NCBI GenBank assembly: GCA_963722075.1
Contig: CAVRJM010000001.1
Location: 1,024,001 to 1,088,000, forward strand
DNA length: 64,000 nucleotides
Direction of reading: 5' to 3'
Source of the DNA: Candidatus Babeliales bacterium
Lineage (GTDB): Bacteria > Babelota > Babeliae > Babelales > JANWKD01
In this document: one piece after another, positions 20,699-58,832 of the stretch
Position numbering within the stretch: the first letter of the stretch is position 1
How the letters are laid out: the number at the start of each line of letters is the position of its first letter
Translations under genes and position numbers: made by a program
The notes under the pieces: model-generated
What the model was told of the DNA's origin: nothing
What the model saw: only the letters and a program-made list of their open reading frames with translations
Database searches by the model: none

Positions 20699-20711
20699 TC
20701 GTATTATTTTA

Positions 20712-20738
20712 AAAAGGGATGCAGTAGGCATCCCTTTT
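20712..20738 (+). terminator. Intrinsic terminator
   Basis: AAAAGGGATGC-AGTAG-GCATCCCTTTT. Confidence 0.75.
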
Positions 20739-20745
20739 ATTTTTT

Positions 20746-20804
20746 TATTACTTCTTCTACGCTCTTATTTTCATAAATAATACCATGCATCGCTTGCGTT
20801 AATG
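20746..20804 (-). pseudogene. Duplicated fragment of the aldolase 3' end
   Basis: ATTACTTCTTCTACGCTCTTATTTTCATAAATAATACCATGCATCGCTTG identical to about 22589-22638. Confidence 0.85.
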
Positions 20805-20916
20805 TGCTTCTTGTAAACAAGGTACCTTTTTTTAATAAAATCTTGCAAACGCTTTCCTTATTATTATAAAAAATAAAATGATTGATTCCAATACTCTAAT
20901 CCGTACGGAGAAAAAA

Positions 20917-25883: not shown

Positions 25884-26056
25884 ATGCCACTTCTTTAATA
25901 AAAAAATTTTATTTTATTAAAGCATAGCGTAATAGTTGCATAGTTATAAAGAGATTAAAGAGGGCTTTTGACAAATTGAAATTAATATTTATATTGGTAA
26001 TTATAGATATTAATATTTTTAGAATTTATTTCTATTTTAAAAAATGTGAGGTTATA

Positions 26057-30328: not shown

Positions 30329-30684
30329 GAAATAAGATGGGAACAATGATTTTTTTAAAAGATAACATTATTTTAGATACCTCAGGAGGAGTTATTTCAG
30401 GTTTATGTTTTTCTGTGGAAAAAATTATATATGAACAAAAATTAAAAGTTAGTAAAGATTTAACAGAACTGATCGATTATTGGTCCATTTCCTATGGTTT
30501 TATGCCATTTGATATAGCAGATTTTATATATACAAAGGAAGATTTATTTGCTTTTACAGATCTTATGAGGAAAGGAATCGATCGTTTTTATCAAGAAAAC
30601 CCCGGCCTCCCACAATATACTATTGATAATTTAGAAAATTTTTACAAAGCATTAGTTGAAGCACAGAAAACATTTCCACAGTAA
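30325..30684 (+). CDS. Putative cognate immunity protein
   Basis: ATGA overlap with toxin stop; 119 aa, acidic/aromatic, no signal peptide. Confidence 0.65.
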   Translation: MRNKMGTMIFLKDNIILDTSGGVISGLCFSVEKIIYEQKLKVSKDLTELIDYWSISYGFMPFDIADFIYTKEDLFAFTDLMRKGIDRFYQENPGLPQYTIDNLENFYKALVEAQKTFPQ

Positions 30685-38599: not shown

Positions 38600-38875
38600 A
38601 TGGATTTCAGCTTTAAGCTTATTATTATCTATATGATATGTGCGGTATCGTTAAATTTAGTGCTATCGGTGAAAAAAATAAGGGACTTTTTATTTAAGGG
38701 ACGATGGATTTATACTACTTTTTTTTGTGCACTTATTAATGGAGCAATCTGTGGCATATTATATCATTCAAATATATTATCACAGCAAGAAGTTATGTAT
38801 ATCAGCATGCTTATTATAGTTACAACGGGGATATGGATCAATAAAGTAAAAAAAGAGAGTATGGCAGCTCTTTGA
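38600..38875 (+). CDS. Small 3-TM protein, MDFxFK family (putative immunity)
   Basis: Paralog of 41548 and 43544 (MDF.FK..., W.Y..F.AL..GA, LxQQE.M, GIG/W). Confidence 0.7.
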   Translation: MDFSFKLIIIYMICAVSLNLVLSVKKIRDFLFKGRWIYTTFFCALINGAICGILYHSNILSQQEVMYISMLIIVTTGIWINKVKKESMAAL

Positions 38876-38896: not shown

Positions 38897-39013
38897 TGGA
38901 TTCTTACGCTACGCTCAGAATGACAGTTTCCCATTATACAATCGTGATTAATGAGAAAAAAATATACTCAGATATATTCGTCATCCAGAGGCCTTTAGGC
39001 CGTAAGGATCCAG
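38897..39013. repeat. Two family B palindromes
   Basis: TGGATTCTTACGCTACGCTCAGAATGAC and CGTCATCCAGAGGCCTTTAGGCCGTAAGGATCCAG. Confidence 0.75.
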
Positions 39014-39058
39014 TTATAAAAATATAAGTCAAAACCATTAAACCTTATAAGGACTTAC

Positions 39059-39481: not shown

Positions 39482-40141
39482 ATGAAGAAACTGGTAATGG
39501 AATTTTTGGGAACATTCTTTTTTGTATTAACAATTAGTTTTACCGGCATTCCCACCGCTATTGCTACTATGCTCATGGCATGGGTATATATCGGCTATTA
39601 TGTTTCGGGCTCTCACTATAATCCTATGATTTCACTTGCACTGGCACTACGTGGTGCTTTTGCATGGCGTGAATTGGGTGGTTATATTATTGCACAAATT
39701 TTGGGCAGCACGGCTGCCTTTTTTTTAAGCAGTCATCTCAATAATGCTTTAGCACTCGGCGTTGAATTACCGCACCCTAATCCACAACTGAGCTTGTTAC
39801 AAATTTTTGTTATAGAAGTACTCTTAGCATTTGTTTTAGCATTCATTGTGCTTGTAGTCACTTCACTTGCACAATTTAATGGTAGCCAAGTTTATGGTCT
39901 TGCTATTGGCTTTACCATTCCAGCACTTGCATACTTAGGTAAAAAGACATCCGGAGGTATTTATAATCCAGCGGTAGCAATTGGCGCAAGTATTGTAGCG
40001 TTATTTAAAGGATTGCCATTTTCATTACCGTATTTATTAGTGTATGTAGCTGGCGCCTTTCTTGGTGGTATTTTAGCAGCATTTGCATATATGTATTTTT
40101 ATGGCCGCGAAGATGAAGAAATAGTCATTTTGAAATTTTAA
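39482..40141 (+). CDS. MIP-family aquaporin
   Basis: EFLGTF, SGSHYNPM, GGIYNPA; six TM segments. Confidence 0.9.
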   Translation: MKKLVMEFLGTFFFVLTISFTGIPTAIATMLMAWVYIGYYVSGSHYNPMISLALALRGAFAWRELGGYIIAQILGSTAAFFLSSHLNNALALGVELPHPNPQLSLLQIFVIEVLLAFVLAFIVLVVTSLAQFNGSQVYGLAIGFTIPALAYLGKKTSGGIYNPAVAIGASIVALFKGLPFSLPYLLVYVAGAFLGGILAAFAYMYFYGREDEEIVILKF

Positions 40142-40189: not shown

Positions 40190-41518
40190 TTAACGAGCTA
40201 AATTCGATTTTAAAGCACCCAAATCATTTTTAAGTTGTTTCAGTAATGAAGCCAGTTCCATTTCTTCTTCGACAGGTACTTTTCCTACTCTTTTTTCAAA
40301 TGCATTAATCAGCTTTTGATAATGGTTCAACGCATGTTGATATTCTTCTTGTGTAATTTCATCTTTTAAAGCTTGTTGATTCTCCTCAGGCGTTGCTTCA
40401 AGTTCATTTTTAGTATATAAAGTATCTCTCCATAACAAAAATTTATTTTCTGCAATAGCGATAAGTCTCTTAAGATTATGTAGATTATTTATTGAAAGAT
40501 CTGGCATAAATTGATCTAATGCTTCTTTTAGAGCCTTTAAAATTGATGATTTTAGAATATATTTTCTCATATCTTCATACGTCTCAAATTCTTTTGTTTT
40601 AGGAGTCTCATCAAAATTATATTTTTTTGTTTCATCAATAAGCGCATAAAGTATTTCTAATTTTTTTGATAAATTTTTTTCAGAGATAAATTTTGTTGTT
40701 AAACCTTTTACGTTAATTCTCTGTTTTTGTCTATCATAACTACCTTTCATTTTATTAAATATATGCTCTCTATCAGCAACCACTATTTGCTTAGCCTTCT
40801 CTAATTTTTTAAGATATGGTTTATTTTTATTTCCTGCTGCTACTAATCGGGCATATTTCTCTTTTATTTCTTTTTCTGAGGTATCCTCAGCTACCCCTAA
40901 AACATCAAAGGGTGATTCTTCAGGATATTCTTCAAGCCATTTTGTAATATTATTTTTTAAATTTTCAATTAACTGCCCATCATAAAATAATCGCGCATTA
41001 CTCATAATATTCCATGCTGATTCGGCTTTCTTTTTTTGTTCTACTGAAACATTACTTGCTATAATTTTTTCATATTGTTTTTTGATTTCGGTTAAATTTG
41101 CAGTGCGAGATACACTAAAAAAATCATAAATTGTCTCATTTGGATAACGCTGAAACCATTCATCAATTTTTTCAAAAAAAACACGTAATTCTTCCATTGG
41201 AATTATATTCTTTAAGCTAATATTTCTAGCGTCATATGCTTCTCTTGTTCTTGGATCTTTAAGTGTTCTATGTGCCTGACTAATTTCTTTAAATTTTTCC
41301 TCTGCTACTGCTCTTTCTTCTGGGGATGCTCCCGACCATCTATCGGGGTGCCATTTAAGTGCTAATTTTTTATATGCTTTAGTAATTTCATCAGTTGAGG
41401 CATCTTCGTTCACTCCCAAAATATCATAGTAAGTAGGCTCTTCTTGCTCCATTGCCCAATTCGGGGTGTTTGCAAAAAAAAGAATTAGTGATAACCAAAA
41501 ATAAGGCTTATTAAGCAT
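40190..41518 (-). CDS. Exported protein with three tandem J domains
   Basis: YYDILGV..HPD; IYDFFSV; PFDVLGV (last two lack HPD); signal peptide. Confidence 0.85.
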
Positions 41519-41547
41519 TACAATCTCCTTTTTAATAATTTTTTTAA

Positions 41548-41937
41548 TTATAAGAAAAAAAATAGATTCATTTCAATAATACTTAATAAAAAAAAGGATT
41601 TTTTTATGGCCAAGAAGATGAACAGATTTTTATTTTGAAATTTTAAATGATGATTTCGAGCTGAGGCAGCTCTTATGTTATTGAAGCGCTGCGCTTTTTT
41701 ATCTTTTTCTAATTTATTAATCCAAAACCCAATTCCCATTGAAACTGGTATAATGGTCATCATAGCTTCATGCGGTGTTAATAAATTCGAATAATATGCA
41801 AATCCACTGACAGCTCCACTAAATAATGCAGAAAAAAGAATGTAAACCCATCGTTTTCTTGGTAAAAGGCATAGAAATGTATTTACCAATGCACCACAAA
41901 TTACCATTAAAAAGCATACCTTAAAATTGAAATCCAT
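41548..41937 (-). CDS. Small membrane protein, MDFxFK family (putative immunity)
   Basis: Paralog of 43544 and 38600. Confidence 0.7.
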
Positions 41938-41939
41938 AG

Positions 41940-42146
41940 TTAAAACTCCACTAAATCTTTACCGTTATTTTTATACCGTATAAATGCTCGAATAATTATG
42001 GCTGGAATAAGTAGGCCAGAAATATAAAGCAACTCCATCTTTATAAACCCATTCGCCCACCAACTTAAAAAAATAAAGAGGAAAAATACAGGTGAAAGCA
42101 ATAAATATTCTTTAATTAATGAATTTAAACAATCTACATATTTCAT
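41940..42146 (-). CDS. Small 2-TM protein (putative immunity)
   Basis: 68 aa hydrophobic; degraded paralog at about 43225-43426. Confidence 0.55.
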   Translation of the reverse strand: MKYVDCLNSLIKEYLLLSPVFFLFIFLSWWANGFIKMELLYISGLLIPAIIIRAFIRYKNNGKDLVEF

Positions 42147-42345
42147 ATTTTATTATTTATCTGGGGTATTTGCATTTCAAAAAAGCGCCAAAAAATATGT
42201 ATGTCAATATATAAGAAAGTATGGCCCATTTTGAAAGTGGAAAATGATCCTGGTAACCCAAAAAAATAAGTATATTATGCTACGATTATCAATGATCCTA
42301 TGGCTGTTATCATATATAATTGCTGTTTTACATAGTATGAGTAAT

Positions 42346-42726
42346 TCATTTTTGCCTATTATTATATCGTTGTACAGCTTGGTTTAACAAGAGAAATGTT
42401 GTAGCAAAGTGAAAATATAAAATAATATAATAAATAGTTGGCATTCTATAAAAATCTATATACCAAAAGTAAAGCATAACGCCATGTGCTACAAACAAAA
42501 ACCATATTTTTTGGATCCTTTTTGAGGTATCGCCAAATGGAGAACTATTAAAAAATGCTACATCAAAATAATGGATATATTTTTCAGGAAATATAAATAT
42601 TGCAATATATACAATAATCGCAAAAATACTTAATAATGTACAAATGATAGGATATAAATTATTTCCTAGCCGAACAAAAGCAGGAAAATTAAAATTTAAC
42701 CAAGTTTGTATTATACAAAGGTACAA
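42346..42726 (-). CDS. Small multi-TM protein (putative immunity; start uncertain)
   Basis: Hydrophobic aromatic-rich segments in the same array. Confidence 0.5.
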   Translation of the reverse strand: MYLCIIQTWLNFNFPAFVRLGNNLYPIICTLLSIFAIIVYIAIFIFPEKYIHYFDVAFFNSSPFGDTSKRIQKIWFLFVAHGVMLYFWYIDFYRMPTIYYIILYFHFATTFLLLNQAVQRYNNRQK

Positions 42727-42876
42727 AAGCGGAATAATTTCCTGTTTAATTTGTGGTAAACGGTTTTTAAAATATCGATCATACTTTATTCTTTCGTTAA
42801 AAAAACCGTTCTCTTTGGATATATATCAATGTCACAAAGAGAACGGAATTATTCTTAATAATCTTGATAGAATCTC

Positions 42877-43137
42877 TTATTCTTCATGTTTCATTAGTAA
42901 TTGAGTAAATGCAGTCGAAAATGCTATTCCATACATAACCTGTTGGCCTGGTGATAGAATAATACCAGAATTAGTTATAATCCATATCCCACCAACAAAC
43001 AAAAAAGCCCCAATAATCATGAATGCCTGTCTGTTTTTGTATATAAAATCAACAGCCACTTTATTTGTTTTTTGCCAACGCTATCAAAAGTTGCGTTTAA
43101 AAAATAACTATAAGAAACAAAGTCAAAATCTATCATG
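42877..43137 (-). pseudogene. Small membrane protein, frameshifted at the 5' end
   Basis: AAGGTG RBS and ATG (MIDFDF) directly after the orphan tail; hydrophobic 3' part is ORF 42877-43059. Confidence 0.45.
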
Positions 43138-43148
43138 TTCACCTTATA

Positions 43149-43229
43149 TTATGGAAGAAATGGTATAGCAAGGCCTGCAGCAAATGCACCCATTGAAGCA
43201 GTTTCTACAGCGGTTATCACTTCTACTAA
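43149..43229 (-). pseudogene. Orphan C-terminal tail of a Gly-Gly precursor
   Basis: LVEVITAVETASMGAFAAGLAIPFLP* aligns with MIGMVETISLGAAALGMMLPLP* of 43980. Confidence 0.75.
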
Positions 43230-43543
43230 AACCAATCTTTTCCTTCTGTTATATATTCCAAAAAAGATGTGATAAAGAGACCTGCAATTGGAATTAATAT
43301 CATACAAAAAATATTAAAATAAGTAGTAGCGCCATTCCACCATACTACCAACAGACCTATAGGTAATAGTGGAAAAGCATGCATATATTGTCAAAATCTA
43401 GTTTTTAGATAATACCAATAGTTCATAATTATTTCTTTTTACAAAAATGGAATCGTCATCCCTTTTAGGTATCAATGCTATAATTATACCCAAAAGGCTT
43501 ACATTTCCACAGGACTGAGATTGCATATCTTGATTAGCGGCTC

Positions 43544-43807
43544 TTATGCCTTTGAAGAACAACAATGTTCTTTATTTTTTTGATTATGCATCCAAAACCC
43601 AATTCCCGTGCAAACGGGTATAGTAATAAGCATAGCCTCTTGCTGTGTTAACATACCTGTATAATATGCAAAGCTATTGATAGCCCCACCAAATATTGCT
43701 GAAAAAAGGATATAAATCCACTGTTTTTTTGGTAATAAGGGTAGTATCGCATGTATCAAGAAACCACCCATTACAACACCAAAGAACACCTTAAAATTGA
43801 AATCCAT
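43544..43807 (-). CDS. Small 3-TM protein, MDFxFK family (putative immunity)
   Basis: MDFNFKVFFG...KQWIYILFSAIFGGA...LTQQEAM...GIGFW. Confidence 0.72.
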   Translation of the reverse strand: MDFNFKVFFGVVMGGFLIHAILPLLPKKQWIYILFSAIFGGAINSFAYYTGMLTQQEAMLITIPVCTGIGFWMHNQKNKEHCCSSKA

Positions 43808-43979
43808 AATTAAAACCCTTGCCATTACATTTATCGAAATTTCAGGATAAATTTTTACAGTAAAAAAGCCGCTCTCTCTGGATATATTTGCAAAGAGAGC
43901 GCAATTATTTTTAATAAGCTTTGATAGAATTTTATTTTTTATATTTTACAAATCAAAATCTATCATTATCAACTTTCTT

Positions 43980-44714
43980 TTAGGGAAGTGGCAACATCAT
44001 ACCAAGTGCAGCTGCACCAAGAGATATTGTTTCTACCATTCCTATCATGGTTGCAAAACAACCTCCACTAGCAACCATTGCAGATCCAGTTACAGCTGTT
44101 GCTGCTGCAACACCAGTAGCAGTTGCAGTTAACCCTCCAACAACAGCACCAGCCCCTACGGTTGCCGCAACCGCTCCTGCTGTTGTTGTTGCAATAGCTG
44201 TTCCTACTGCAGTACCTGCAGCACCAATTGCTGCTCCGGTTGCTGTTGCCCCAACACTTCCCGCAATAGCCAGACCTCCGGCAACAGCTACTGGTGTTGC
44301 AGCAGCTACGCTAGCAGTAACAGCTGCTGCTGCAGTTCCGTAACATAAGGTTTTAGCAATCCAATAGAATGCTGCCGCTGTACCAGGCCCACCGCCTAAG
44401 CCACGAACATGAGCCTTAAGCGAAAATTCACCATTATCAAATTGCTTTACTCCAATATAGCCAACTTTTTGAAATTTTTTAAGCGTTTTTTTATTGGCAT
44501 TCCGCAATAGTGGGTCTACATCGAATTGATTGACGTCATGTATTTCTCCATTTTGCTTAATATGGAATCCTGATTCATCATGGAACAGTTTTATTTTACC
44601 AAAACGCTCAGGTGCTTGAATTGATGCTTGTTTAATTTTAAAGACCGACATTCTTTCTTCCATAGCACTTAATGAAGACATTATTAATAAACTTAATACA
44701 CATAGTTTTTTCAT
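43980..44714 (-). CDS. Sec-exported Gly-Gly precursor with long Ala/Gly/Thr/Val hydrophobic tail (bacteriocin-like)
   Basis: Signal peptide; about 90-aa pro-domain ending LKAHVRGLGG|G; hydrophobic tail. Confidence 0.75.
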   Translation of the reverse strand: MKKLCVLSLLIMSSLSAMEERMSVFKIKQASIQAPERFGKIKLFHDESGFHIKQNGEIHDVNQFDVDPLLRNANKKTLKKFQKVGYIGVKQFDNGEFSLKAHVRGLGGGPGTAAAFYWIAKTLCYGTAAAAVTASVAAATPVAVAGGLAIAGSVGATATGAAIGAAGTAVGTAIATTTAGAVAATVGAGAVVGGLTATATGVAAATAVTGSAMVASGGCFATMIGMVETISLGAAALGMMLPLP

Positions 44715-44757
44715 AGTAAACACTTTCAAAAATTTTCTAAATATTAAAAATTACAAA

Positions 44758-45369
44758 TTAAAGAGCCCAACCAATTGCAGCCATTGCGGTTGCTGCCGTT
44801 TCAACCAATCCTGCAGCATTCAGATAGTGAGCGGTAGCGACTACTCCTTGGCCTGCTGCTGCTCCTGCTACCGTGCCCGTGGCAACTGCTGCGCCAGCTG
44901 AAACAACCCCTGTTGTAGCTACCACACCGCCTACTGCTGCCCCGGCAACGCCACCGGTTGCCACTACTACCGTGGCCGCGCCAACCGCAGCTACGCCATA
45001 ACATAACGTTTTGGTACCCCAATAAAGAAAGGACGCAAGTCCTTGCCCACCACCGTGCGCACGTACCCCTACATTAAGCGAAAATTGACCTTCGTCAGTT
45101 TGATTTACTCGAATGTAACCAACTTTTTGCAATTTTTTTAATGTTTTTTTATGCGCAGTACGCAAAATTGGGTCCACCAGATAATTATTCACCATATGCT
45201 TGTTGCCATTTTGCATAACACAAAAATTGTTGCCGTCATGGAAAAGCCGAACAGCTTCTAATTGACCGGCTGTTTGAATAGCTGATTGTTTGAGTTCAAA
45301 AAAAGATGGTGATTGCATTCCTTTAAGGGGAACGAACAATAAAAAAGGTACTAGATACAATTTATTCAT
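44758..45369 (-). CDS. Paralogous Gly-Gly precursor (bacteriocin-like)
   Basis: Shared LFHD, VDP.LR, KKTLKK.QKVGYI, FSL; VRAHGG|G; YW..KTLCYG; hydrophobic tail. Confidence 0.75.
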   Translation of the reverse strand: MNKLYLVPFLLFVPLKGMQSPSFFELKQSAIQTAGQLEAVRLFHDGNNFCVMQNGNKHMVNNYLVDPILRTAHKKTLKKLQKVGYIRVNQTDEGQFSLNVGVRAHGGGQGLASFLYWGTKTLCYGVAAVGAATVVVATGGVAGAAVGGVVATTGVVSAGAAVATGTVAGAAAGQGVVATAHYLNAAGLVETAATAMAAIGWAL

Positions 45370-45717
45370 AAAAATCTCATGTAAAAATAAAATATACAAA
45401 ACAAATAAGTTGGTATTGGTTATATTTATTAGTACGCTGTCATCATGAATCCTTTCCGTTTATGAGGTTTATACAGTCCAAATAAAATCCATTGCGGATT
45501 GGATTCACTATGCTTGAAAACAAACATATTTTTTATAAAAAAATTATAAAATAGAAAGCGGCATCATAAAAAAATGCGGATTTAAGCCACTTTTATATAA
45601 AGTTGATATGATTTTTAGAAAAAATTTATTTGGGCAACATGTTAAATTCTATTAAATTTTTTAACATCATTTATAAAATTTATACTCAAAGATTACCCGA
45701 TATTCGATTTAAAAAAG

Positions 45718-45808
45718 CCGTCGTTGCGAGTTTACGAAGCAATCCAGTTGTAAAATATAAAGATTTTGTATTTATTAACTGGATCCCTACGCTTCGCTCT
45801 GGATGACA
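45718..45808. repeat. Family A plus family B palindrome pair
   Basis: CCGTCGTTGCGAGTTTACGAAGCAATCCAG and CTGGATCCCTACGCTTCGCTCTGGATGAC. Confidence 0.8.
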
Positions 45809-45879
45809 TTTGAATTATAATCTGAGAAATCAAAATAAAATCGAATTCATGTTAAATAAAACAAAATTCACCACATGGC

Positions 45880-48545
45880 CTAATTAATCAGATTGAATTG
45901 TTTTAAGCGTTTATAAATCGTAGAACGATTAACGTCTAAGAACTCTGCAATTTTTGCTTGGGTGGTTAATTTTTTAAGTAACATCTCTAATATTTTTGGC
46001 TCCTTTAATGCTTTTTTACCAAGCGTATACGCTTTTGCAAGCTCGGGATCTCCAATAGTATATGAGCTATTGAGATGAATGGTCTCTTTAATACGGTTCT
46101 TTTGATCCATATCTTTTTTGAGAACACCTTCAATTTGTTTTTTTAACTGTTTAATACTCAATGATCGATGAGCAATTAAGCTTGCTTTTTCACGCTTATT
46201 TATTTCAACTAACGTTGTATGGGGTAATACCAATTGACTTACAATAGTTTCTATTAATTCGTTATATTCACGATCTGTTAAATCATTCAATGATGGCATA
46301 ATTATTGATGCTTGCTTTAATTCATCAAAGAGATTTTTTGAAAATCTATGTTCACGTACAAGCATTGAAAGCTCTTGCCCCGTTGAACACATAATACGCA
46401 CAGAGCTTGTTACTTTTTGATCGCTTTTATAAGGGTGATAGTATCCATATTTAATATATTCAGCCAACATTTCTTGCAATTCTAGGGGTAAGAACTGAAT
46501 ATCTGCTATACACAGTGTTCCTATATTATGAAGGCTTTCCAGCAACGGCTTTTGAGAAGATACGTTATCTGATTCATACAGTTTATTAATACCAAATAAC
46601 GTTTTTGCTACCGTATAGAGATCAGTTTCTTTTTTTAATGTTAAAATGCGCAACTGTTCACGCAAACTAATGGTATGCAAAATATGAACTATATCTTCCC
46701 TATCATCATCTGCTACATCGATTAAGAGTGCTTTTTTACTTAACGCAAGCTTAAGTAAATTAATTTTAAAGGCTAACAATGTATCATTGATTGTTGGAAT
46801 AATTTTATTAATTAATTGTCCCGCTTTAGTGGTTTCTAGATATAACATAAAATCCATTTGGGTAGGTTTGTGTATACGTAATTGTGCCTGTTTAATAATA
46901 TCAAAAATAGTTGCATACGATATAACAAGTAACACATTATTCTTATCTAAAAAGGGAATAGCATATGCACTCAGCTTAATGCCCTGTTCATCATAAAAAT
47001 AATGCATCTGAGCAGTTTTATATTGAAAAACATTTGTTGCTAGTGCCTCAAGTTCTTGCGTTACTGAATGCCGTTTATGTTCATTAAGATCGATTGTAAT
47101 GATATCTTTGGCATCTTGATTTAAATATACAAACACACGATACGAGGTGTATGAAATGACACCAATTTTTTTTGCCTTATTTGAATAGAGAAAAGCATCT
47201 AATGATTCTCGATATTGATTAATTTCTTGGTGTTTTGCAAACAATTCTTCTTGCAGCTTCTTTTCCCGTGCAATTACGGTAGTTAGTTGATGGTTTTGCA
47301 AGATATTAATAACGTTCTCTACGCTGGTTGCATATAACACCATTTCATCACATTCAATATCACTGTAGAGCTGTTTTCCACGCGCATCTCTTTTAATAAT
47401 GATAGCCGCTATCAATGAATTATTTTTAAAAATAGGAATAAGTACATCGGCATCTAGATTATTTAAAAATGAAATTATTGCATCATTGAGATGTGTTTGA
47501 TTATGTATATTGTCAAAAACATTTCATCATAAATGGCAATGCGCTGTTCGTGCATATAAGTATACAATAATTCGTTCTGAACAAATTCCCGTTCTATAAT
47601 TTGTTCGCTTTTGCTTAATTGATAGCTGTTTTTTTCTTCTTCAATATTTCTTATTTGGGTGCTTTTCCTCAATAAGAATTCTACAAAATGAGGCTCAATT
47701 AAAAAAATATCCTTAAAAGCCAGTTGGATAACTGGTTCCAGTTGTTGAATATGAGTAACCGTTCCTAATTTTGCAATTGATTGCCTGAATTTTTTAAAAA
47801 AGGGAAAAGTATGAGGGTCTTTAACTTGATTTTGAAAATTAAGAAAGCGAAGGCGCATTACCTTAAAGGCGCAATAGTATATAGATACTGCATAAATTAA
47901 AGAATGGACGCCCGTAATTATATAGCTCGTCCTGCTATAAATTATAATATGAATAACCTCCGAAATACCCAGTAAGATAAGCGGATAAACTATATAATTC
48001 AATATAGTTATTAATTGTAATTTTAAAATTTTGGGGTAATCAGGGTGTCGTATTTTTTTCAAAACAAAAAAAGCACTAAATAATAAAAGTAAAAAAATAA
48101 AGTTTGCTATTATAAGAAATAAATCACCATACCAATATTTTTCTGAAAATTTAAAATGAAAAAAACCAATGAATAAAAAGTATCCGCTATAGAAAACAGT
48201 AAATGGAAAAAGTATCTTTTGATGAATTGGTAAAGCATAATTACGGATTGTTAAACTTTCTATAAATATTGCAAGAAATTGATATTGCAATAGACAAAAC
48301 ACCCAGGCAATACAACAAAAAAAATAAATTATACGTAAGTTTATACATGAGTAAAACAAGTTATTTATTTGATAAAGCAACCAGGAGACATCGGTAAAAA
48401 CATTGCCAACTAAAGCCCCAATGAGAAGTAAAATTCTTTTAGCATCTTTGTTCTTATTAAAGAGAGCGGTTATAAGAAATGAAAGCAATATTAGTTTTGC
48501 GCTAAAGGCCGTAAGAATAATAAAAAAAATCAAATAGTTGATCAT
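45880..48545 (-). CDS. Multi-TM sensor / GAF-PAS-like / degenerate NtrC-type AAA / Fis-HTH regulator; one frameshift near 47521
   Basis: ORFs 47475-48545 and 45880-47415 join via YDE(I)VFDNIHNQTHLNDAIISFLNNLDADVLIPIF, collinear with paralog 48926; ends IAEFLDVNRSTIYKRLK. Confidence 0.8.
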
Positions 48546-48663
48546 TGAAAAGTCAGTTTATGTTAAGTTATTCTCCTTTCAATTATATCCTATATTTATA
48601 AAATTTTAAAAAATAGTAACATACTGTTGCTTATTCATTTAACTGAAAATTAATTTATGAATT

Positions 48664-48696
48664 AAAAAAGCCCGTCTATAAAAAACGAGCTTTTTA
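48664..48696 (-). terminator. Terminator after the small peptide gene
   Basis: Minus strand AAAAAGCTCGT...ACGGGCTTTTTT. Confidence 0.65.
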
Positions 48697-48717
48697 TATT
48701 TATTGCTATTCAATCGC

Positions 48718-48837
48718 TTATTTAACAATAGTCGTTAACAATAAGCTATAACCACCTGTTGGAGGCCCATCAAAAGACATTACAGTAATCAACGCAAATA
48801 AAAAAACAAAATTCACTATATTAATTTTTTTTATCAT
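48718..48837 (-). CDS. Unannotated 39-aa exported peptide (candidate pheromone precursor)
   Basis: MIKKINIVNFVFLFALITVMSFDGPPTGGYSLLLTTIVK; GAAGG RBS; own terminator. Confidence 0.6.
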   Translation of the reverse strand: MIKKINIVNFVFLFALITVMSFDGPPTGGYSLLLTTIVK

Positions 48838-48925
48838 AGTATACCTTCAAATAAAATGTTATAAATATTTAGTTTTAAAGGTAGTATAAGGTCTTCATTT
48901 CTTAACATCAAGAATTGGGTCAAAA

Positions 48926-51625
48926 ATGGTTTTTGATTTTCTACATTCTTTATCCCAAAGCATAATTCTTCTACTCATTATAGAAACCCTATCGTGTTTT
49001 TCTAAAATTTATCTTCTATTTTTTCTTTTTAACGCATTAAAATCTACCAAAATAAAGATGCAGTTATTGCTCTTATTAACTGTCTTAACTTGTAGTACTA
49101 TCGTTGATTTCTCCTGGATAATTTATATTTTATCTCAATGGTTCTCATTTATTGATGTACGTCCTGTTTTTTTTATTGTACGACTAGCTTGGGTTGCTAA
49201 TTATATTTTATTTTTAACACTCGGCTTTTTTGTTGAGAGCCTTATTCAAAAAGATTTTAAGCTTAAAATTAGACAAAAATTGTTTATTTTATTTAGTTCT
49301 CCCTGGATACTCTATTTTGTTTACGTTGCTTTCTTTCAATACAACTTTACACAAGTTGCTGATAGAGAAGTAGAACTAATTATTATGCATACTTCTATTA
49401 TTTTCCTATATTTTATTCTAGTTATCCCTTCCGTTTATGTAGTAATAAGAGAACTGCACCGGCAACATTTTCCCAAAATTTTAAAAAAACAATTAATAAT
49501 TCTTAACAAATTTTTTATTGCTCCCTATTTATTTACTCAGATAATGGATATTCTTTCTGTTTATTACATGCAACCATATATTATTATCGGTATTTCAAAT
49601 GCTTTTATAGCAGCCGGTGTTTATTTTTCCATTACTAGAATCATGAAGCTGCGCTTTTTAAATTTTGAAACTAAGGTGCAGCCGCCAGAAAATATCGAAT
49701 TTATTGATAATTTTAAAACTTTTTTATCAACAATCACTAATACCAAAAGCTTGGCGGAAGTTACCCTACTGGTGAAAAATTTCTTTCAAGAAACATTTCA
49801 TATTAATACTAATCGCGTCACTATCTGCTATAGAAATAGTGCATTTTATTTACCGCAATCAGTAACGTATGATCCGCCGGTATTAAGCACCTGCGAAATT
49901 GCTTTTGAAAAGTTAGTAAATAACCCGGTAAAACATGAACAGCTCTTAACTATTATGAAGCAGCAACAGATTTTAATTTATGATGAAATTGAATTTAGTA
50001 ATTTCTATAAAGAAGAGACTATTCATCAGGAAATACTCTCTTTCATGAAAGAAATGAAGGCAGATATTTTTTTACCTATTTATGAACACCATAATTTAAT
50101 TGCTTTTCTTATCATTAATAATAAAAAAGAACACAATGAGCTATTTAATAATTTAGAATATTCGCAAATGGTTATCGTAGGTAAATATCTTGGGCATATT
50201 ATTACGATGCTCCAATTAAGTAACTATCGCGGGTTAATTGCGCAAAATAAGCTCCTTCAAGAACAATTATATGAAGCACATCGCGAAAATAATAACTATA
50301 AAGAAACAATTCAACTGTTTTTAAAAGATATGCACAATAGGCACATTGGCGTTATCACCTATGATAGTACTCGCTTTGCTTTTATTAATCAGAGTGCCAA
50401 AGAACTTATTGGTATTAATCCCAATATGCATAGTAATCATCCCATAAGTAAACAATTAAAACAGCTGGTTGCCATAACACAAGAATATGAATCAAGCCAA
50501 ACTATAACAATCGATACCGCAGCGGGAAAAAAATTGGTAGCATCAGCATTACTCCATAGTGATAAAAAAAGTATCATCATTATTATTTGTCATGCTGAAA
50601 TTGCAGAACAATTTAAACAAGAAGTAGCCAAATTAGGTAATCCTGCCACCTGGGAATATCTATTATATTTACAAACAACTGAATCTGGGAAGCTGATTAA
50701 TAAATTAATTCCAGGTAACAGTAAGAACCTACTCAATTTTAAGATTGATTTATTAAAAGCTGCCTTAAGTAAGCGGCCTATAGTACTTGATATTCCTGAA
50801 GATGATTTGGAAGGAATTATAGAAATTTTACATCATTCAAGTCTACGCGATCATTTGTATAAATTAACCATGAGCTCTCCTGAAAAAAATAATAGCATAG
50901 CCATAAAATTATGTGGCGTTAATCCGCTTTTTGGATCCGCTGAACAATCATTATTGGAACAATTAAATGGATCAGGCACACTGTTTATTCAAAATATTCA
51001 CTTGCTTGAATTAAGCACCCAAGATGCACTAGCAGAGTTTATCAGATATGGCTATTATACAGTTCAAAAAAGTAATAAAAAGCTTTTTGCTGATGTACGT
51101 CTTATCTTTTCAACCACCCAGAATTTACATCAATTAGTACATGAGGGAGCATTTAGCAAAATACTTTATCAAGAGTTAGAAAAAAATATTTTGACTATGC
51201 CTTCATTATTTCAACTATCTGATGATGAATTGCATGAACTGGTTAAAGATTTTATCAAACAAGAAAATCTTGCCAATGAAATTGAATTTACTAAAAAAGA
51301 TAAAGAGCGCTTAATAGAAATTCGTTCATTGAGTATTGCCAATTTAAAAAAGAAAATTAGAAACGTAATCATTGAAAAATCTAAAAAGCATGATGTTTAT
51401 TACCCCGCTCACAATGATGATAGCGATCTTATTGAAGCAAATTTACTGGGGAAAAATCTATTACGCGATAAAGAGAAATTTATAAAATTGATGCAAAAAT
51501 TTGATTACAATCAAAAAAAGGTAGCTGCCTTTTTAGGCGTTAATCATTCTTCAGTCAGTCGCCGCATTAAAGCGTATAATCTTGAAATAGGTACTAGTAA
51601 TAATTCTACAAGTGAAGTTAACTAA
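48926..51625 (+). CDS. Multi-TM sensor / GAF-PAS-like / degenerate NtrC-type AAA / Fis-HTH regulator
   Basis: About seven N-terminal TM segments; GTLFIQNI..LELSTQDAL, ADVRLIFSTTQNL, LTMPSL; NQKKVAAFLGVNHSSVSRRIK. Confidence 0.85.
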   Translation: MVFDFLHSLSQSIILLLIIETLSCFSKIYLLFFLFNALKSTKIKMQLLLLLTVLTCSTIVDFSWIIYILSQWFSFIDVRPVFFIVRLAWVANYILFLTLGFFVESLIQKDFKLKIRQKLFILFSSPWILYFVYVAFFQYNFTQVADREVELIIMHTSIIFLYFILVIPSVYVVIRELHRQHFPKILKKQLIILNKFFIAPYLFTQIMDILSVYYMQPYIIIGISNAFIAAGVYFSITRIMKLRFLNFETKVQPPENIEFIDNFKTFLSTITNTKSLAEVTLLVKNFFQETFHINTNRVTICYRNSAFYLPQSVTYDPPVLSTCEIAFEKLVNNPVKHEQLLTIMKQQQILIYDEIEFSNFYKEETIHQEILSFMKEMKADIFLPIYEHHNLIAFLIINNKKEHNELFNNLEYSQMVIVGKYLGHIITMLQLSNYRGLIAQNKLLQEQLYEAHRENNNYKETIQLFLKDMHNRHIGVITYDSTRFAFINQSAKELIGINPNMHSNHPISKQLKQLVAITQEYESSQTITIDTAAGKKLVASALLHSDKKSIIIIICHAEIAEQFKQEVAKLGNPATWEYLLYLQTTESGKLINKLIPGNSKNLLNFKIDLLKAALSKRPIVLDIPEDDLEGIIEILHHSSLRDHLYKLTMSSPEKNNSIAIKLCGVNPLFGSAEQSLLEQLNGSGTLFIQNIHLLELSTQDALAEFIRYGYYTVQKSNKKLFADVRLIFSTTQNLHQLVHEGAFSKILYQELEKNILTMPSLFQLSDDELHELVKDFIKQENLANEIEFTKKDKERLIEIRSLSIANLKKKIRNVIIEKSKKHDVYYPAHNDDSDLIEANLLGKNLLRDKEKFIKLMQKFDYNQKKVAAFLGVNHSSVSRRIKAYNLEIGTSNNSTSEVN

Positions 51626-54336: not shown

Positions 54337-55677
54337 ATGAATAGAAGCATTATTTTTTTACTTGCAATGGTATATTGCACTGCGCTCAAAGCAGATTTGC
54401 AGGGTGAATTAACAACCTTAAAGAAAAAACTTACAGTTTTACATAATGCATTGCCAGTGAAATTGAGTATTGATGAAGTGGTTGAACAAGCAAAACCAAT
54501 TTTTAAACAAATTAAAAAAACTCTTACCAATGCGCTCAAATCTAAAAAACCCATTTCTAGCAAACAATATGAAACATTAGGAGAATCAATGGGAAATAAA
54601 CTAAGAGAATTAGCTAAAGATTTAAATCCTGAAGAGCTAAGAGATATTGGGATCGAATTAGAACCACTTACTGATGAATTAGCAGATTTAGAAACACAAC
54701 TTCAATTCGAAAGATTGCTTCCTATAACATTTGAGGAGGGACAAAATAATCTATATAGAAAACTTGATAATCTTCGCCAATTATTAGTATCAAAATATGA
54801 TACAAAACAATTTGTTAAAAAAGCAGAAATAGAACCTTTTTACCAATTTTACCATAAACTGATGAATTTATTTAATGAGGAACAGAAAGAAATCATCCTT
54901 AAGGACCGCAATATTAAAATTGTGATTCAAATTATAAATAACCTCGGAGAACATCTAGACAACATGCATAAATGGGATCACATGATCGACCCCGCACCAT
55001 GGTGGGAAGATATTGAGAAATTTGAAGTAGAGCCTGAAGTAGAATTTCCAAGCTCAGAAGAAGAAGAAGAAATAAGCGAGGGTGAAGAAGAAGAAAAACC
55101 CGGTGTAATTCGTCAACATACTTTTGCACAAACTCCAGCGATACAAGAAGAGTTAAGTAACGATTATAAAGTATTAGCCCAGTTAGAAAATGACGTTAAT
55201 GATTTTGAACAAAAACTCAATGCATTTATTAATTGGGCAAAAAAAATACATGCCAAAAAGCAGGATACGAGCAGCGAAGAATCTAAAGCGTACGATGAAT
55301 TAATAAATTCCTGGGGTCATTTACCACGGATCCCACAAATATTACAGTGGATTACCTCATATGATAAATTTGAACGCACTGCCACACGCCAAGATGCCCA
55401 AGCAACGATTGAATATTTAGACAATTTGAAAAAGTTATTAGAGCATGTAGCTAACATTATTGGGAGAGCATGGCGCGATAATCATAATATATTAAATAAT
55501 ATTTCCTTTACATTTGAGGGTACGTCTAAATCAGGTGTTGGTCATTTTAATCCCTTAATCATCTATAAAAATAATCTTGAAAAAATTATATTAGGAAAAG
55601 GAAAAGGGATGATCTCCGGCCATTTTGATGAACTTAATAAGAGCCTTCATAAATGGCATAGAGCCCTTTCTTTTTAA
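54337..55677 (+). CDS. Exported modular helical protein A
   Basis: Signal peptide; ADLQGELTTLKKKL; poly-Glu linker. Confidence 0.85.
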   Translation: MNRSIIFLLAMVYCTALKADLQGELTTLKKKLTVLHNALPVKLSIDEVVEQAKPIFKQIKKTLTNALKSKKPISSKQYETLGESMGNKLRELAKDLNPEELRDIGIELEPLTDELADLETQLQFERLLPITFEEGQNNLYRKLDNLRQLLVSKYDTKQFVKKAEIEPFYQFYHKLMNLFNEEQKEIILKDRNIKIVIQIINNLGEHLDNMHKWDHMIDPAPWWEDIEKFEVEPEVEFPSSEEEEEISEGEEEEKPGVIRQHTFAQTPAIQEELSNDYKVLAQLENDVNDFEQKLNAFINWAKKIHAKKQDTSSEESKAYDELINSWGHLPRIPQILQWITSYDKFERTATRQDAQATIEYLDNLKKLLEHVANIIGRAWRDNHNILNNISFTFEGTSKSGVGHFNPLIIYKNNLEKIILGKGKGMISGHFDELNKSLHKWHRALSF

Positions 55678-55698
55678 AACTGTATAAACTAGAGCATT

Positions 55699-55732
55699 AA
55701 GCCGGTGGAAAAAACTTTCACCGGCTTTTTTT
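55699..55732 (+). terminator. Terminator (copies at 57261 and 58851)
   Basis: AGCCGGTGGAA-AAAC-TTTCACCGGCTTTTTTT. Confidence 0.8.
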
Positions 55733-55905
55733 ATACCACTCAACGGTCTTTATAATTACATCAAAGCGACGTACTACTACGCCAGCCTAGCTGGTCTGTT
55801 ATTGTAGTAATAACAGCATATATTCTTTATTGAGATTAACTGTTGACTGCATTTCCGGTACTACTTTATAGTTGATTTATAGGATCACTTTAAAAAGGAA
55901 TGTTT

Positions 55906-57239
55906 ATGAAAAGAAGCATCATTTTCTTAATCGCAATAGTATATTGCAATGTTCTCAAAGCAGATTTGCAAGGTGAATTAATTACCTTAAAGAAAAAACT
56001 TACTGTTTTACATGCTGCATTGCCAAAAGGGCCGGGCGGCTTGCCACCATTACCAGCAGGGAAAAAGGGTGAACTAGAAAATGTTAAGCAACAACTGCGA
56101 GCGCTTTTTGACCAAATGCTTAAATTTGTACAAGATGACCCTTCAATAACAAAAGAATCGCAGCTTAAATTCTATTTTGATCAAATACCAGATATAGTTA
56201 AAAACTTATCTAGGGAACAAGAGAAAGAAGTTAGAGATGCAATGTTACCATCAGTAAAAAAAATTGGAGAAATAATAGAAGCTCGAATAGAAAATGAAAT
56301 AAAAGATACTGTAGCATATTTATCACAAAAATTACGTGAATTTTCTGATCTTTTAAAATGGCACATTGATAATAACCAACTGATACCAAAGCAGAAGAGG
56401 CTCAAAATATCTACCAAATATATCAAAAAGTTATGGATAAATATAATACAGAACAAAGAGCCGATATTTTGCTACAAATTCGTCCATTATTAGAACATAT
56501 TGATGAACAAATTGCAACGGCATTCCGAGCATTTTTATGGTTCATTGATTATGGTACAAAACCATGGAGGAAAGATATTGAGAAATTAGAATTAGAGCCT
56601 GAAGTAGAATTTCCAAGCGAAGAAGAAGAAGAAGTAAGCGAGGGTGAAGAAGAAGAAAAACCCGGTGTAATTCGTCAACATACTTTTGCACAAACTCCAG
56701 CGATACAAGAAGAGTTAAGTAACGATTATAAAGTATTAGCCCAGTTAGAAAATGACGTTAATGATTTTGAACAAAAACTCAATGCATTTATTAATTGGGC
56801 AAAAAAAATACATGCCAAAAAGCAGGATACGAGCAGCGAAGAATCTAAAGCGTACGATGAATTAATAAATTCCTGGGGTCATTTACCACGGATCCCACAA
56901 ATATTACAGTGGATTACCTCATATGATAAATTTGAACGCACTGCCACACGCCAAGATGCCCAAGCAACGATTGAATATTTAGACAATTTGAAAAAGTTAT
57001 TAGAGCATGTAGCTAACATTATTGGGAGAGCATGGCGCGATAATCATAATATATTAAATAATATTTCCTTTACATTTGAGGGTACGTCTAAATCAGGTGT
57101 TGGTCATTTTAATCCCTTAATCATCTATAAAAATAATCTTGAAAAAATTATATTAGGAAAAGGAAAAGGGATGATCTCCGGCCATTTTGATGAACTTAAT
57201 AAGAGCCTTCATAAATGGCATAGAGCCCTTTCTTTTTAA
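55906..57239 (+). pseudogene. Chimeric modular protein (N-half of C, C-half of A) with 2-nt frameshift near 56394
   Basis: AAAGCAGAAGAGG here vs AAAGCAAGAGG in the copy at 57950; ORFs 55900-56493 and 56433-57239. Confidence 0.75.
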
Positions 57240-57467
57240 AACTGTATAAACTAGAGCATTAAGCCGGTGGAAAAAACTTTCACCGGCTTTTTTTATACCA
57301 CTCAACGGTCTTTATAATTACATCAAAGCGACGTACTACTACGCCAGCCTAGCTGGTCTGTTATTGTAGTAATAACAGCATATATTCTTTATTGAGATTA
57401 ACTGTTGACTGCATTTCCGGTACTACTTTATAGTTGATTTATAGGATCACTTTAAAAAGGAATGTTT

Positions 57468-58832
57468 ATGAAAAGAAGCATCATTTTCTTAATCGCAATA
57501 GTATATTGCAATGTTCTCAAAGCAGATTTGCAAGGTGAATTAATTACCTTAAAGAAAAAACTTACTGTTTTACATGCTGCATTGCCAAAAGGGCCGGGCG
57601 GCTTGCCACCATTACCAGCAGGGAAAAAGGGTGAACTAGAAAATGTTAAGCAACAACTGCGAGCGCTTTTTGACCAAATGCTTAAATTTGTACAAGATGA
57701 CCCTTCAATAACAAAAGAATCGCAGCTTAAATTCTATTTTGATCAAATACCAGATATAGTTAAAAACTTATCTAGGGAACAAGAGAAAGAAGTTAGAGAT
57801 GCAATGTTACCATCAGTAAAAAAAATTGGAGAAATAATAGAAGCTCGAATAGAAAATGAAATAAAAGATACTGTAGCATATTTATCACAAAAATTACGTG
57901 AATTTTCTGATCTTTTAAAATGGCACATTGATAATAACCAACTGATACCAAAGCAAGAGGCTCAAAATATCTACCAAATATATCAAAAAGTTATGGATAA
58001 ATATAATACAGAACAAAGAGCCGATATTTTGCTACAAATTCGTCCATTATTAGAACATATTGATGAACAAATTGCAACGGCATTCCGAGCATTTTTATGG
58101 TTCATTGATTATGGTACAAAACCATGGAGTAAAGATCTTTATCCAGAATTTGAGATAGAAAGCGAAGAAGAAGAAGAAGAAGAAAGTGAAGAAGAAGCGG
58201 CAGAAAAACTAGCAAATGCCCGAAGAAAAGAACTTTGGGAAACATTTCGTGACCTTGAAAAGCTTTTAAGTCAACAACCATTTGATAAAGTTAAAACAAC
58301 TATTCTACTCAATTTACTTAAACTAATGTATGCGGTGCGAAAAAACCTAATTACTCAACTTGACCAGAAAGATATGGAGAATTTGATTACACAAGCAGAA
58401 GAAATGTTAGCACAGCAACCGCGACCAACCTTCGAGCGAGCAAGTCAACCACGACCTCAAGTTCCTGCTACGCGCGCGGGTAGTCAACTTCCACCACAAA
58501 CACCCGCTCCCCGTGAACGCGCGGGCGGTCCAAGAGAAAGAAGAGGATTCATAACTCATGCTGCCCCAGAATTATTATATGGAGAGGAACAACCAACTCA
58601 AACTGAAATTCAACAATTTAGTGAAGCACTTGCAGAGCTCGAAGAATTGATGCAAGAACCCCAACCACAAATAACTAAATTAGATGAAGCATTGAAAACG
58701 GTAAAAAAGCTTGCATCAAAAGTAAAAAATAGTTATAGCGCTACATCTTGGGTTAAAATAGAATACATAATAGAACAAGCAGAAGCTAAATTAGAATCGC
58801 GCAAGCATATATTAGAATTATTACATACATAA
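57468..58832 (+). CDS. Exported modular helical protein C
   Basis: Signal peptide; ADLQGELITLKKKL; poly-Glu linker; distinct C-terminal half. Confidence 0.85.
   Translation: MKRSIIFLIAIVYCNVLKADLQGELITLKKKLTVLHAALPKGPGGLPPLPAGKKGELENVKQQLRALFDQMLKFVQDDPSITKESQLKFYFDQIPDIVKNLSREQEKEVRDAMLPSVKKIGEIIEARIENEIKDTVAYLSQKLREFSDLLKWHIDNNQLIPKQEAQNIYQIYQKVMDKYNTEQRADILLQIRPLLEHIDEQIATAFRAFLWFIDYGTKPWSKDLYPEFEIESEEEEEEESEEEAAEKLANARRKELWETFRDLEKLLSQQPFDKVKTTILLNLLKLMYAVRKNLITQLDQKDMENLITQAEEMLAQQPRPTFERASQPRPQVPATRAGSQLPPQTPAPRERAGGPRERRGFITHAAPELLYGEEQPTQTEIQQFSEALAELEELMQEPQPQITKLDEALKTVKKLASKVKNSYSATSWVKIEYIIEQAEAKLESRKHILELLHT

Follow-up and report, generated by a model that had tools for sequence, protein, structure and literature searches.

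The stretch of DNA analysed here (“the window”, 64,000 nucleotides, G000:C1:1024001-1088000) comes from a Candidatus Babeliales bacterium (genome G000; 1.47 Mb, four contigs, 99% complete). The Babelota are intracellular parasites of protists, and their regulation and weaponry are almost undescribed. A block of the window at 41548-51625 holds a co-oriented array of small hydrophobic open reading frames (ORFs), two precursor proteins of exported type that end in a Gly/Ala-rich tail, and two one-component regulators with a 39-aa peptide gene between them. A preliminary description had read this block as one quorum-controlled attack and immunity system that follows the logic of streptococcal Blp and plantaricin loci. 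In this report, we argue, at a probability of about 60%, that two distinct modules, each Babelota-wide, adjoin here: one is likely a polymorphic membrane-toxin/immunity locus and the other likely a peptide-sensing regulator pair, any control of the former by the latter being local at most. Phylum-wide counts refer to 261 genomes; G and L numbers denote genomes and loci, respectively.

The two precursor genes lie in tandem on the minus strand, with the exported-type architecture, pro-domain, R-x-x-GG site and Gly/Ala tail that had been described for them. Precursor 1 (44758-45369, 203 aa) has a signal-like N-terminus, a pro-domain and the site RAHGG/G, where the slash marks the predicted cut; its predicted mature tail is 96 aa long (44758-45048). 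Precursor 2 (43980-44714, 244 aa) is built in the same way, with the site RGLGG/GP and a predicted mature tail of 136 aa (43980-44390) that belongs to the long class, the cut being placed by comparison with the HINT-tail fusions considered below. The signal-like character of both N-termini was judged by eye. In both proteins the GG ends at residue 107-108, after the signal peptide and pro-domain, and both tails are 48-49% Gly+Ala with 2 charged residues. A strict GxxxGxxxG motif is present in 36 of 62 tails overall, the 96-aa window tail among them, and is absent from the 136-aa tail.

The pro-domain, about 85 aa in length, was matched in 78 of the 261 genomes, and the family amounts to 666 protein clusters at 50% identity. 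All named matches of a protein search with the precursor were from Babelota, and the cultured isolate Vermiphilus pyriformis has a precursor of its own (P0197). A GG site followed by a tail of at least 40 aa is found in 235 of 253 family proteins (not de-duplicated), in which the median tail has 109 aa, 42% Gly+Ala and 2.8% charged residues. By rule, the tails were divided into long, GPV-ending (~72 aa) and short classes. Pfam and NCBIfam held nothing meaningful for the precursors or the array proteins, and the ESM Atlas gave no usable match for the precursor. The carrier is constant while the C-terminal tail is exchanged: at L077, the identity among three precursors is 99-100% for the pro-domain but 19-33% for the tail, and paralogues at L081 share 96% and 41% of these parts, respectively. 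The comparison covered 7 paralogue pairs, of which one (L083), being wrongly split, was left out of account. At loci of families f15, f17 and f18 (L079-L118 and others), some pro-domains are duplicated or have an insertion of 40-70 aa, with the GG and tail unaltered.

The same tail is also found on a different carrier with a different processing domain. Five proteins from four genomes (two genes in G014, and one each in G254, G019 and G073) consist of a signal peptide and a HINT domain fused directly to the precursor tail family, and PT-HINT scores above the Pfam cut-off in four of the five. HINT domains cut after their closing Asn. In the fusions, the tail begins at HN/G, right behind the closing His-Asn of HINT. 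Thus, the first residue of the fused tail would be the very Gly found behind the GG in the window proteins, and the fusions predict an exact N-terminus for the putative mature toxin. Placement of HINT just before the C-terminal domain is a polymorphic-toxin layout, as set out in the portions of PMC3482391 available to us. A gene of another kind at L033:10194-11945 encodes a signal peptide, PT-HINT and Ntox21, is followed by a 172-aa gene, with which it makes up a classic polymorphic toxin pair, and is divergent from a precursor; it shows that Babelota put this PT-HINT carrier on a domain predicted to be a toxin.

What follows a precursor is set by its tail. Small hydrophobic ORFs lie directly behind 38 of 64 precursors, as compared with 100 of 995 genes in G000. 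A partner of a recognised family was found for 41 of 57 classified precursors. The F1 proteins (hydrophobic, 63-81 aa) occur behind long tails only (14), the WYE+MTQ pair (12) and F4 (4) behind GPV-ending tails only, and two minor families behind short tails (3); a family with an STM3941-like Pfam/NCBIfam match (E 3e-9, under the cut-off) stands behind tails of the short (5) or the long class (3). In 38 of the 41 cases the partner family agrees with the tail class, a figure that none of 10,000 shuffles reached and to which none came closer than 30. Of 18 held-out GPV-ending tails, 14 are succeeded by WYE, MTQ or F4, none by a family belonging to another class, and 4 by no known family. All three HINT-carried tails are among the 14; as these obey the class rule, the partner tracks the tail and not the carrier.

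The partner genes also occur by themselves. F4 is present in 25 of the 261 genomes, and among 20 F4 loci inspected, 8 lack a precursor or any remnant of one to a distance of 3.4 kb, while 2 have tail remnants only. Such orphan cassettes or strings of immunity-like genes recur at L213, L217, L261 and L041, and in the window array. At L041:3892-6838 (G109), an orphan WYE+MTQ pair comes immediately after a regulator, and the 9-kb locus has no precursor.

The window array (41548-43807, minus strand) contains orphan immunity-like genes accompanied by a tail stub. Its F4-family membrane protein (42346-42798, ~146 aa with an uncertain start) matches at E 2e-44 and is an orphan, because G000 has no match to a GPV-ending tail. 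Next to it lies a split F1-family gene (42157-42349), whose pieces match at E 1e-4 and 3e-5; contigs do not span the break, and both error and decay are possible. A 68-aa hydrophobic protein (41940-42146) is weakly F1-like (E 0.04), and the family match of a 52-aa hydrophobic ORF (43226-43384) is not significant (E 0.08). The stub itself (43149-43226; tail-end hidden-Markov-model match, E 4e-8) is the final ~25 codons of a precursor tail without its pro-domain, and it is identical in an independent contig (X1). Behind it, at 42877-43136, two ORFs, one of 39 aa and the other, which is hydrophobic, of 60 aa, lie in different frames across a T-run (43068-43073); neither has a clear homologue. One X2 contig is one base shorter at this run, and by frame reading the shorter run leaves the two ORFs unjoined, so that a repairable assembly error at 43068 is not sustained. 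Behind precursor 2, a gene remnant of 6 codons is followed by a terminator-like hairpin (43851-43970, minus strand), the 3' segment of which recurs (42788-42893) behind the gene that succeeds the tail stub; positions 43919-44100 are identical in the X1 contig. The array of tiny membrane proteins thus stands as first described, with the reservations that several of its genes are split and that its orphan tail is a short stub.

The ends of the array are formed by two proteins with the motif MDFxFK, the first at 41548-41937 (core 41692-41937) and the second, an 87-aa hydrophobic protein, at 43544-43807; a third stands alone outside the block, at 38600-38875 on the plus strand. A protein search with MDFxFK returned proteins of G000 only. 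Of 260 other genomes, 4 gave matches, all of them weak (E 1e-4 or worse), to set against 3 copies in G000. This restriction to G000 rules out the proposed use of MDFxFK as a conserved marker across the phylum, and a role for these proteins can be argued from their position only. The 3' end of the first overlies a 46-nt copy (85%) of the end of the aquaporin gene (41601-41646 vs 40096-40141), located at the array edge and flanking a DnaJ gene, and this may be a rearrangement junction.

On the right of the block, a second module is encountered. The right regulator (48926-51625, plus strand) is an 899-aa one-component protein with HisKA_7TM-like and GAF-like regions, a degenerate AAA+ domain of the sigma-54-activator type and a Fis-type helix-turn-helix (HTH). 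Its sensor regions were assigned by way of a family member, the N-terminal 440 aa of which resemble HisKA_7TM and GAF models in the ESM Atlas (TM 0.67-0.72, with one row at the naming bar); HisKA_7TM is listed as a sensor family in the part of PMC6944256 at hand. The AAA+ domain retains none of Walker A, GAFTGA and Walker B, and no RpoN was found in G000. The regulator family was matched in 184 of the 261 genomes, and the cultured isolate Noda2021 has a regulator with its peptide (L163). The left regulator (45880-48545, minus strand) is an array-adjacent paralogue that is split into two pieces (47475-48545 and 45880-47415) by a frameshift near 47515; no contig spans the break, and error and decay are both possible. 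It has no peptide gene of its own. The picture of two divergent regulators bracketing a peptide gene therefore holds for the right one; the left is frameshifted, and the peptide belongs to the right one only.

This peptide gene (48718-48837, minus strand) is a typical member of a phylum-wide Pro-Pro (PP) family. Its 39-aa product has a basic N-terminus, a hydrophobic core and the sequence FDGPPTGG, and the gene is preceded by a sigma-70-like promoter (48883-48911, minus strand; TTGATG, 17 nt, TATACT) and, just before the ATG, by GAAGG, which resembles a ribosome site. Of 64 regulators, 50 are preceded by a short divergent PP ORF that has a hydrophobic core, and none by one on the same strand; among 519 long ORFs of G000 used as a control, 14 have a divergent PP ORF, one being the true one. 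When unique regulators are counted, 86 of 106 have the divergent peptide, as against 2 of 106 with one on the same strand; the 86 include 38 of the 44 regulators from an added set of loci. In 65 pairs with a gap of 55-125 bp, a sigma-70-like promoter is found on the peptide strand in 56, on the other strand in none and in shuffles in 1.3, and a ribosome site in 60 as opposed to 3.2 in shuffles. The residues around the PP are hypervariable, and 87 peptides yield 84 different 6-mers; the peptides of tandem regulators often differ, and several peptides repeat the PP core. In most homologues, the -35 box of the peptide gene is ~6-8 bp from the regulator start codon. TATAAT is often found on the opposite strand of the -10 region, so that one element may drive both the peptide and regulator genes.

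The divergent pairing and the conservation of promoter and ribosome site support the peptide-sensing component of the preliminary description, and on balance we favour the PP peptide as the ligand of its regulator. A competing idea, which we hold to be possible but the less probable of the two, is that the peptide remains membrane-bound and, like the small protein MgrB, modulates its regulator by feedback, or serves as a proline-stalling leader, and is not a diffusible signal. Such a role would suit the hydrophobic core and the very short C-terminal part, for which cleavage sites are plausible by eye only, as well as the hydrophobic C-terminal extension of the window peptide; further, the peptide gene is often upstream of nth on the same strand. 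The second peptide of tandem pairs, though, is directed at a regulator's 3' end, where there is no gene for which it could be the leader, and in the family of the window genome the peptide follows the regulator and not nth. A leader of nth is accordingly disfavoured. The repeated PP cores and their hypervariable flanks also fit a released ligand better.

By position, the two modules mostly do not form one system. The evidence bearing upon this (SEPARATENESS) comprises genome counts of both modules, the nth setting, locus counts, a quick regulator tree and a profile recheck. A regulator is present in only 5 of 50 precursor loci (each 6-20 kb, some ended by contig edges), and 3 of the 5 are in the window genome's family. 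As we read the listed ORFs, the usual neighbour of the regulator is nth (33 of 40 loci), often with a XerC-type gene downstream. In families f17, f18 and f6, precursors are present in 18 of 54 genomes and a regulator match in none, and a profile recheck of five of these genomes yielded short AAA+ matches at most. The bracketing layout was seen in G000 only. In the tree, the closest partner of the right regulator is a copy in G108 that is distant from the array there (support 100), and the left is sister to the array-adjacent, peptide-less and broken copy of G108 (support 100). Because the G108 orthologue of the right regulator is unlinked to the array, we take the bracketing to be a local juxtaposition.

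It has to be weighed against this that an integrated system, in which the PP peptide acts through one or both regulators to induce the precursors and immunity genes, has evidence of its own. All members of the family that have a regulator (G000, G108, G109 and G110) have a copy adjoining precursor or partner genes; in both G000 and G108 the peptide-less paralogue has remained beside the array through rearrangement; the L041 regulator immediately precedes two partner genes; and the many genomes that hold both modules could use control in trans, which is invisible in gene order. Apart from the unlinked loci and regulator-free families, this idea is opposed by the breakage of the array-adjacent regulator in both G000 and G108. 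Upstream of the three precursors compared there is no common 11-mer and no promoter of the peptide type, although this is a weak test, and promoters sought in general over 41400-49100 were no more frequent than expected by chance (34 vs 42). We therefore regard a single quorum-controlled system as unlikely, and we are equally doubtful that the PP peptide controls these toxins. The same low confidence attaches to the fuller scheme in which a PP peptide, released through Sec and read by a seven-helix one-component factor with a dead AAA+ domain, would be used for counting inside or between hosts and would, in the window's family, be wired to swappable pore-forming toxins against rivals. A paper on the genome of one Babelota isolate states, in the portion consulted, that quorum-sensing mechanisms are absent (PMC6561590). 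Several loci (L044, L055, L057, L075 and L077) also have, in the conserved thrS-nth-peptide-regulator-xerC neighbourhood, a Lys/Arg/Ala-repeat gene that was seen as a reverse-strand ORF. Its product resembles chlamydial histone-like proteins; it might be a developmental target of the regulator.

Under the preferred reading of two modules, the following mechanism may be proposed. The precursor would be exported by Sec and perhaps passed onward by type II secretion (G000 has two secretins). The pro-domain would shield the tail until a protease cuts after Gly-Gly and frees a Gly/Ala-rich helical tail starting with Gly-Pro. This tail would insert into and depolarise the membranes of bacterial competitors, which would most likely be other Babelota, and the small membrane protein encoded behind each tail would neutralise that tail. 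Recombination at the conserved 3' end of the tail could import foreign immunity genes and leave stubs, in time yielding an array that is largely composed of orphan immunities. In the second module, signal peptidase would free a short x-x-P-P-x-x peptide that binds the seven-transmembrane (7TM) domain of the divergent regulator, and the ATPase-dead AAA+ core and HTH of the latter would act without sigma-54.

That the tail is an antibacterial toxin with cognate immunity is, in our estimation, probable; HINT-tail fusions, tail-matched small membrane genes and orphan cassettes all point that way. The preliminary description had offered host lysis as a second use. The tails might indeed attack the protist host (its vacuole, an organelle or the whole cell), with the small membrane proteins acting in self-protection or as assembly partners. 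Babelota live inside host cells, which some of them lyse (PMC12172432), and many of their exported proteins have been proposed as host effectors (PMC6561590), according to those parts of the two papers that we drew on; further, very hydrophobic tails need not, we suppose, select among membranes. But a pro-domain match was found in only 78 of the 261 genomes, and it is conflict among related bacteria that is marked, in the available text of PMC3482391, by tail-specific partners, orphan arrays without tails and tail swapping. Competition accounts better than host lysis for a partner gene that varies with the tail, and we consider host lysis improbable. Rivals could meet, as multipartite associations that include Babelota are predicted in single protist cells in the accessible sections of PMC12644861. 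The same sections of that survey describe Babelota as devoid of toxin-antitoxin systems. Least probable are non-toxic exported membrane or surface proteins (e.g. for self-recognition or entry exclusion) with small assembly partners, an idea to which the absence of a match to known toxin families and the purely predicted toxic activity lend some room, but which can hardly account for PT-HINT fusions, orphan partners and tail stubs in a structural protein.

Several observations weigh against our interpretation. The window precursors are 54% identical to each other in the pro-domain and 50% in the tail; as the copies diverge alike in both parts, swapping is not visible between them. Neither has an intact partner gene directly behind it, and this, together with the several split array genes, means that the window locus may be decaying. 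The adjacency of a regulator copy to precursor or partner genes in G000 and G108-G110 favours a single system. Of the 106 unique regulators, 20 have no called peptide, although 7 of these have a PP ORF that fails the hydrophobicity filter. The activities of toxin, immunity and peptide are all predictions at present. Circular bacteriocins are ligated head to tail. A comparison of 27 tails with Pfam gave no meaningful match, and no circular-bacteriocin family at E 0.1; a sequence search of the Protein Data Bank with the precursor profile matched no solved structure. Invariant Cys, His and Ser are all missing from the pro-domain, which speaks against self-cleavage by the usual chemistry, and neither PT-HINT nor C39 was found in G000, so that no processing protease was identified from these. 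Finally, the genomes are akin to each other, such that the shuffle tests overstate significance; the partner-family seeds were drawn from the same loci as the 38-of-41 table; and the peptide promoter pattern was picked after the sequences had been viewed.

Other features of the window and of precursor loci deserve mention. A dispersed repeat element with 97 blastn matches in G000 lies at 45706-45810, between the left regulator and the precursors, and a second one, at 38980-39021, has 27. At 25976-30684, a 1450-aa protein of exported type is followed by a 119-aa gene, and a similar pair (1427 aa and 115 aa) occurs at L032:12898-17530, near the G110 regulator; this looks like another large toxin/immunity-type pair, with no meaningful Pfam match. 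Tandem paralogous exported proteins with long shared segments are found at 54337-58832, where the splitting of one copy (~56433-56493) suggests residual indel errors or decay. Two paralogous Pro/Gln-rich proteins of exported type lie at 19109-22539, and their ‘gelTnLKgKLn’ start is common to several other window genes. A cluster of two or three genes with export signals stands beside precursors at L035:7196-8930, L036, L038, L086, L092, L096, L097, L103 and L113. It encodes one helical protein of ~170 aa and one or more proteins of ~200 aa with Gly/Ala hydrophobic stretches, and could be a multi-part pore former or a delivery aid; no match to it was found in G000, and an SseC-like hit is weak (E 0.03).

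Among known systems, the peptide-regulator pair can be compared with the RRNPP family. The RRNPP receptors, such as Rgg of the Rgg/SHP pair, are cytoplasmic TPR proteins of Bacillota. Like Rgg/SHP and other RRNPP pairs, the Babelota pair combines a one-component regulator with a divergent gene for a short hydrophobic peptide, and the mature peptides vary; an adjacent short peptide gene of exported type, as read from its sequence pattern, accompanies 86 of 106 regulators. Unlike them, the receptor is a membrane protein of 7TM-GAF-AAA+-HTH architecture, and the phylum is not Bacillota. The AAA+ fold of sigma-54 activators and the Fis-type HTH are shared with the sigma-54-independent proteins DhaR, NtrX and TyrR (the NCBIfam hits being far below the cut-off), from which the Babelota regulators differ in the loss of their Walker and GAFTGA motifs, in the HisKA_7TM-like and GAF-like sensor and in the paired peptide gene. 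With those motifs missing from the window regulator and RpoN from G000, it does not qualify as a sigma-54 enhancer-binding protein. The pair proposes a ligand for a HisKA_7TM-like domain.

Blp and plantaricin loci are characterised by a C39 ABC exporter, a His kinase with a response regulator, and a short double-glycine leader. The Babelota locus is similar in its presumed Gly-Gly cut, its hydrophobic mature peptide, its small immunity-like genes and the presence nearby of a peptide gene and a membrane sensor. It differs in having a leader of ~105 aa that includes a signal peptide, where Blp leaders are short (15-30 aa), in a PP peptide without a GG leader, and in a sensor that is usually unlinked to the toxin (5 of 50 loci). 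The exporter and kinase had already been reported missing; C39 (PF03412) was not found in G000, with a control positive in 7 of 14 genomes, and no His kinase or response-regulator domain was found among the 12 block proteins scanned, to which that search was limited. With exporter, kinase, leader and linkage all at variance, Blp/plantaricin logic is not the right model, and a polymorphic toxin system fits better.

Gly/Ala-rich hydrophobic killing domains with small membrane immunity proteins are also known from CdzC/D-CdzI of Caulobacter (PMC5380434) and EsxX-ExiCD of S. aureus (PMC12744356), insofar as the accessible text of these two papers describes them. The immunity of EsxX is a two-gene membrane system that occurs as orphans, like the WYE+MTQ pair (PMC12744356). 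Secretion is of type I for Cdz and of type VII for EsxX (PMC5380434, PMC12744356), whereas the signal here is of the Sec type; no type I secretion genes are among the block ORFs, and no sequence link was found.

The closest likeness is to the polymorphic toxins, and in particular to those associated with Sec and the type II secretion system and with PT-HINT, as far as they are treated in the parts of PMC3482391 available to us. There, as here, a constant carrier bears a variable C-terminus, some members have HINT, a partner gene lies right behind the toxin, and cassette exchange, orphan cassettes and strings of immunity genes are described. In the Babelota system, by contrast, an unnamed ~85-aa pro-domain ending in GG replaces HINT, the proteins are very small, the tail is non-enzymatic, Gly/Ala-rich and without a Pfam match, the window remnants are stubs and not full cassettes, and the host phylum is intracellular. 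Our literature search found no description of either module, subscription journals and supplements being outside it, and the portions consulted of Babelota-related papers make no mention of bacteriocins. If the proposal is correct, ~30% of the genomes carry an unnamed polymorphic membrane-toxin family, along with several new immunity families, and parasites sharing one host engage in strain-level warfare. We suggest that the locus is best viewed not as a member of the Blp group but as a polymorphic toxin system with apparently new carrier, tail and immunity families, lying beside a peptide-regulator pair that is likewise undescribed.

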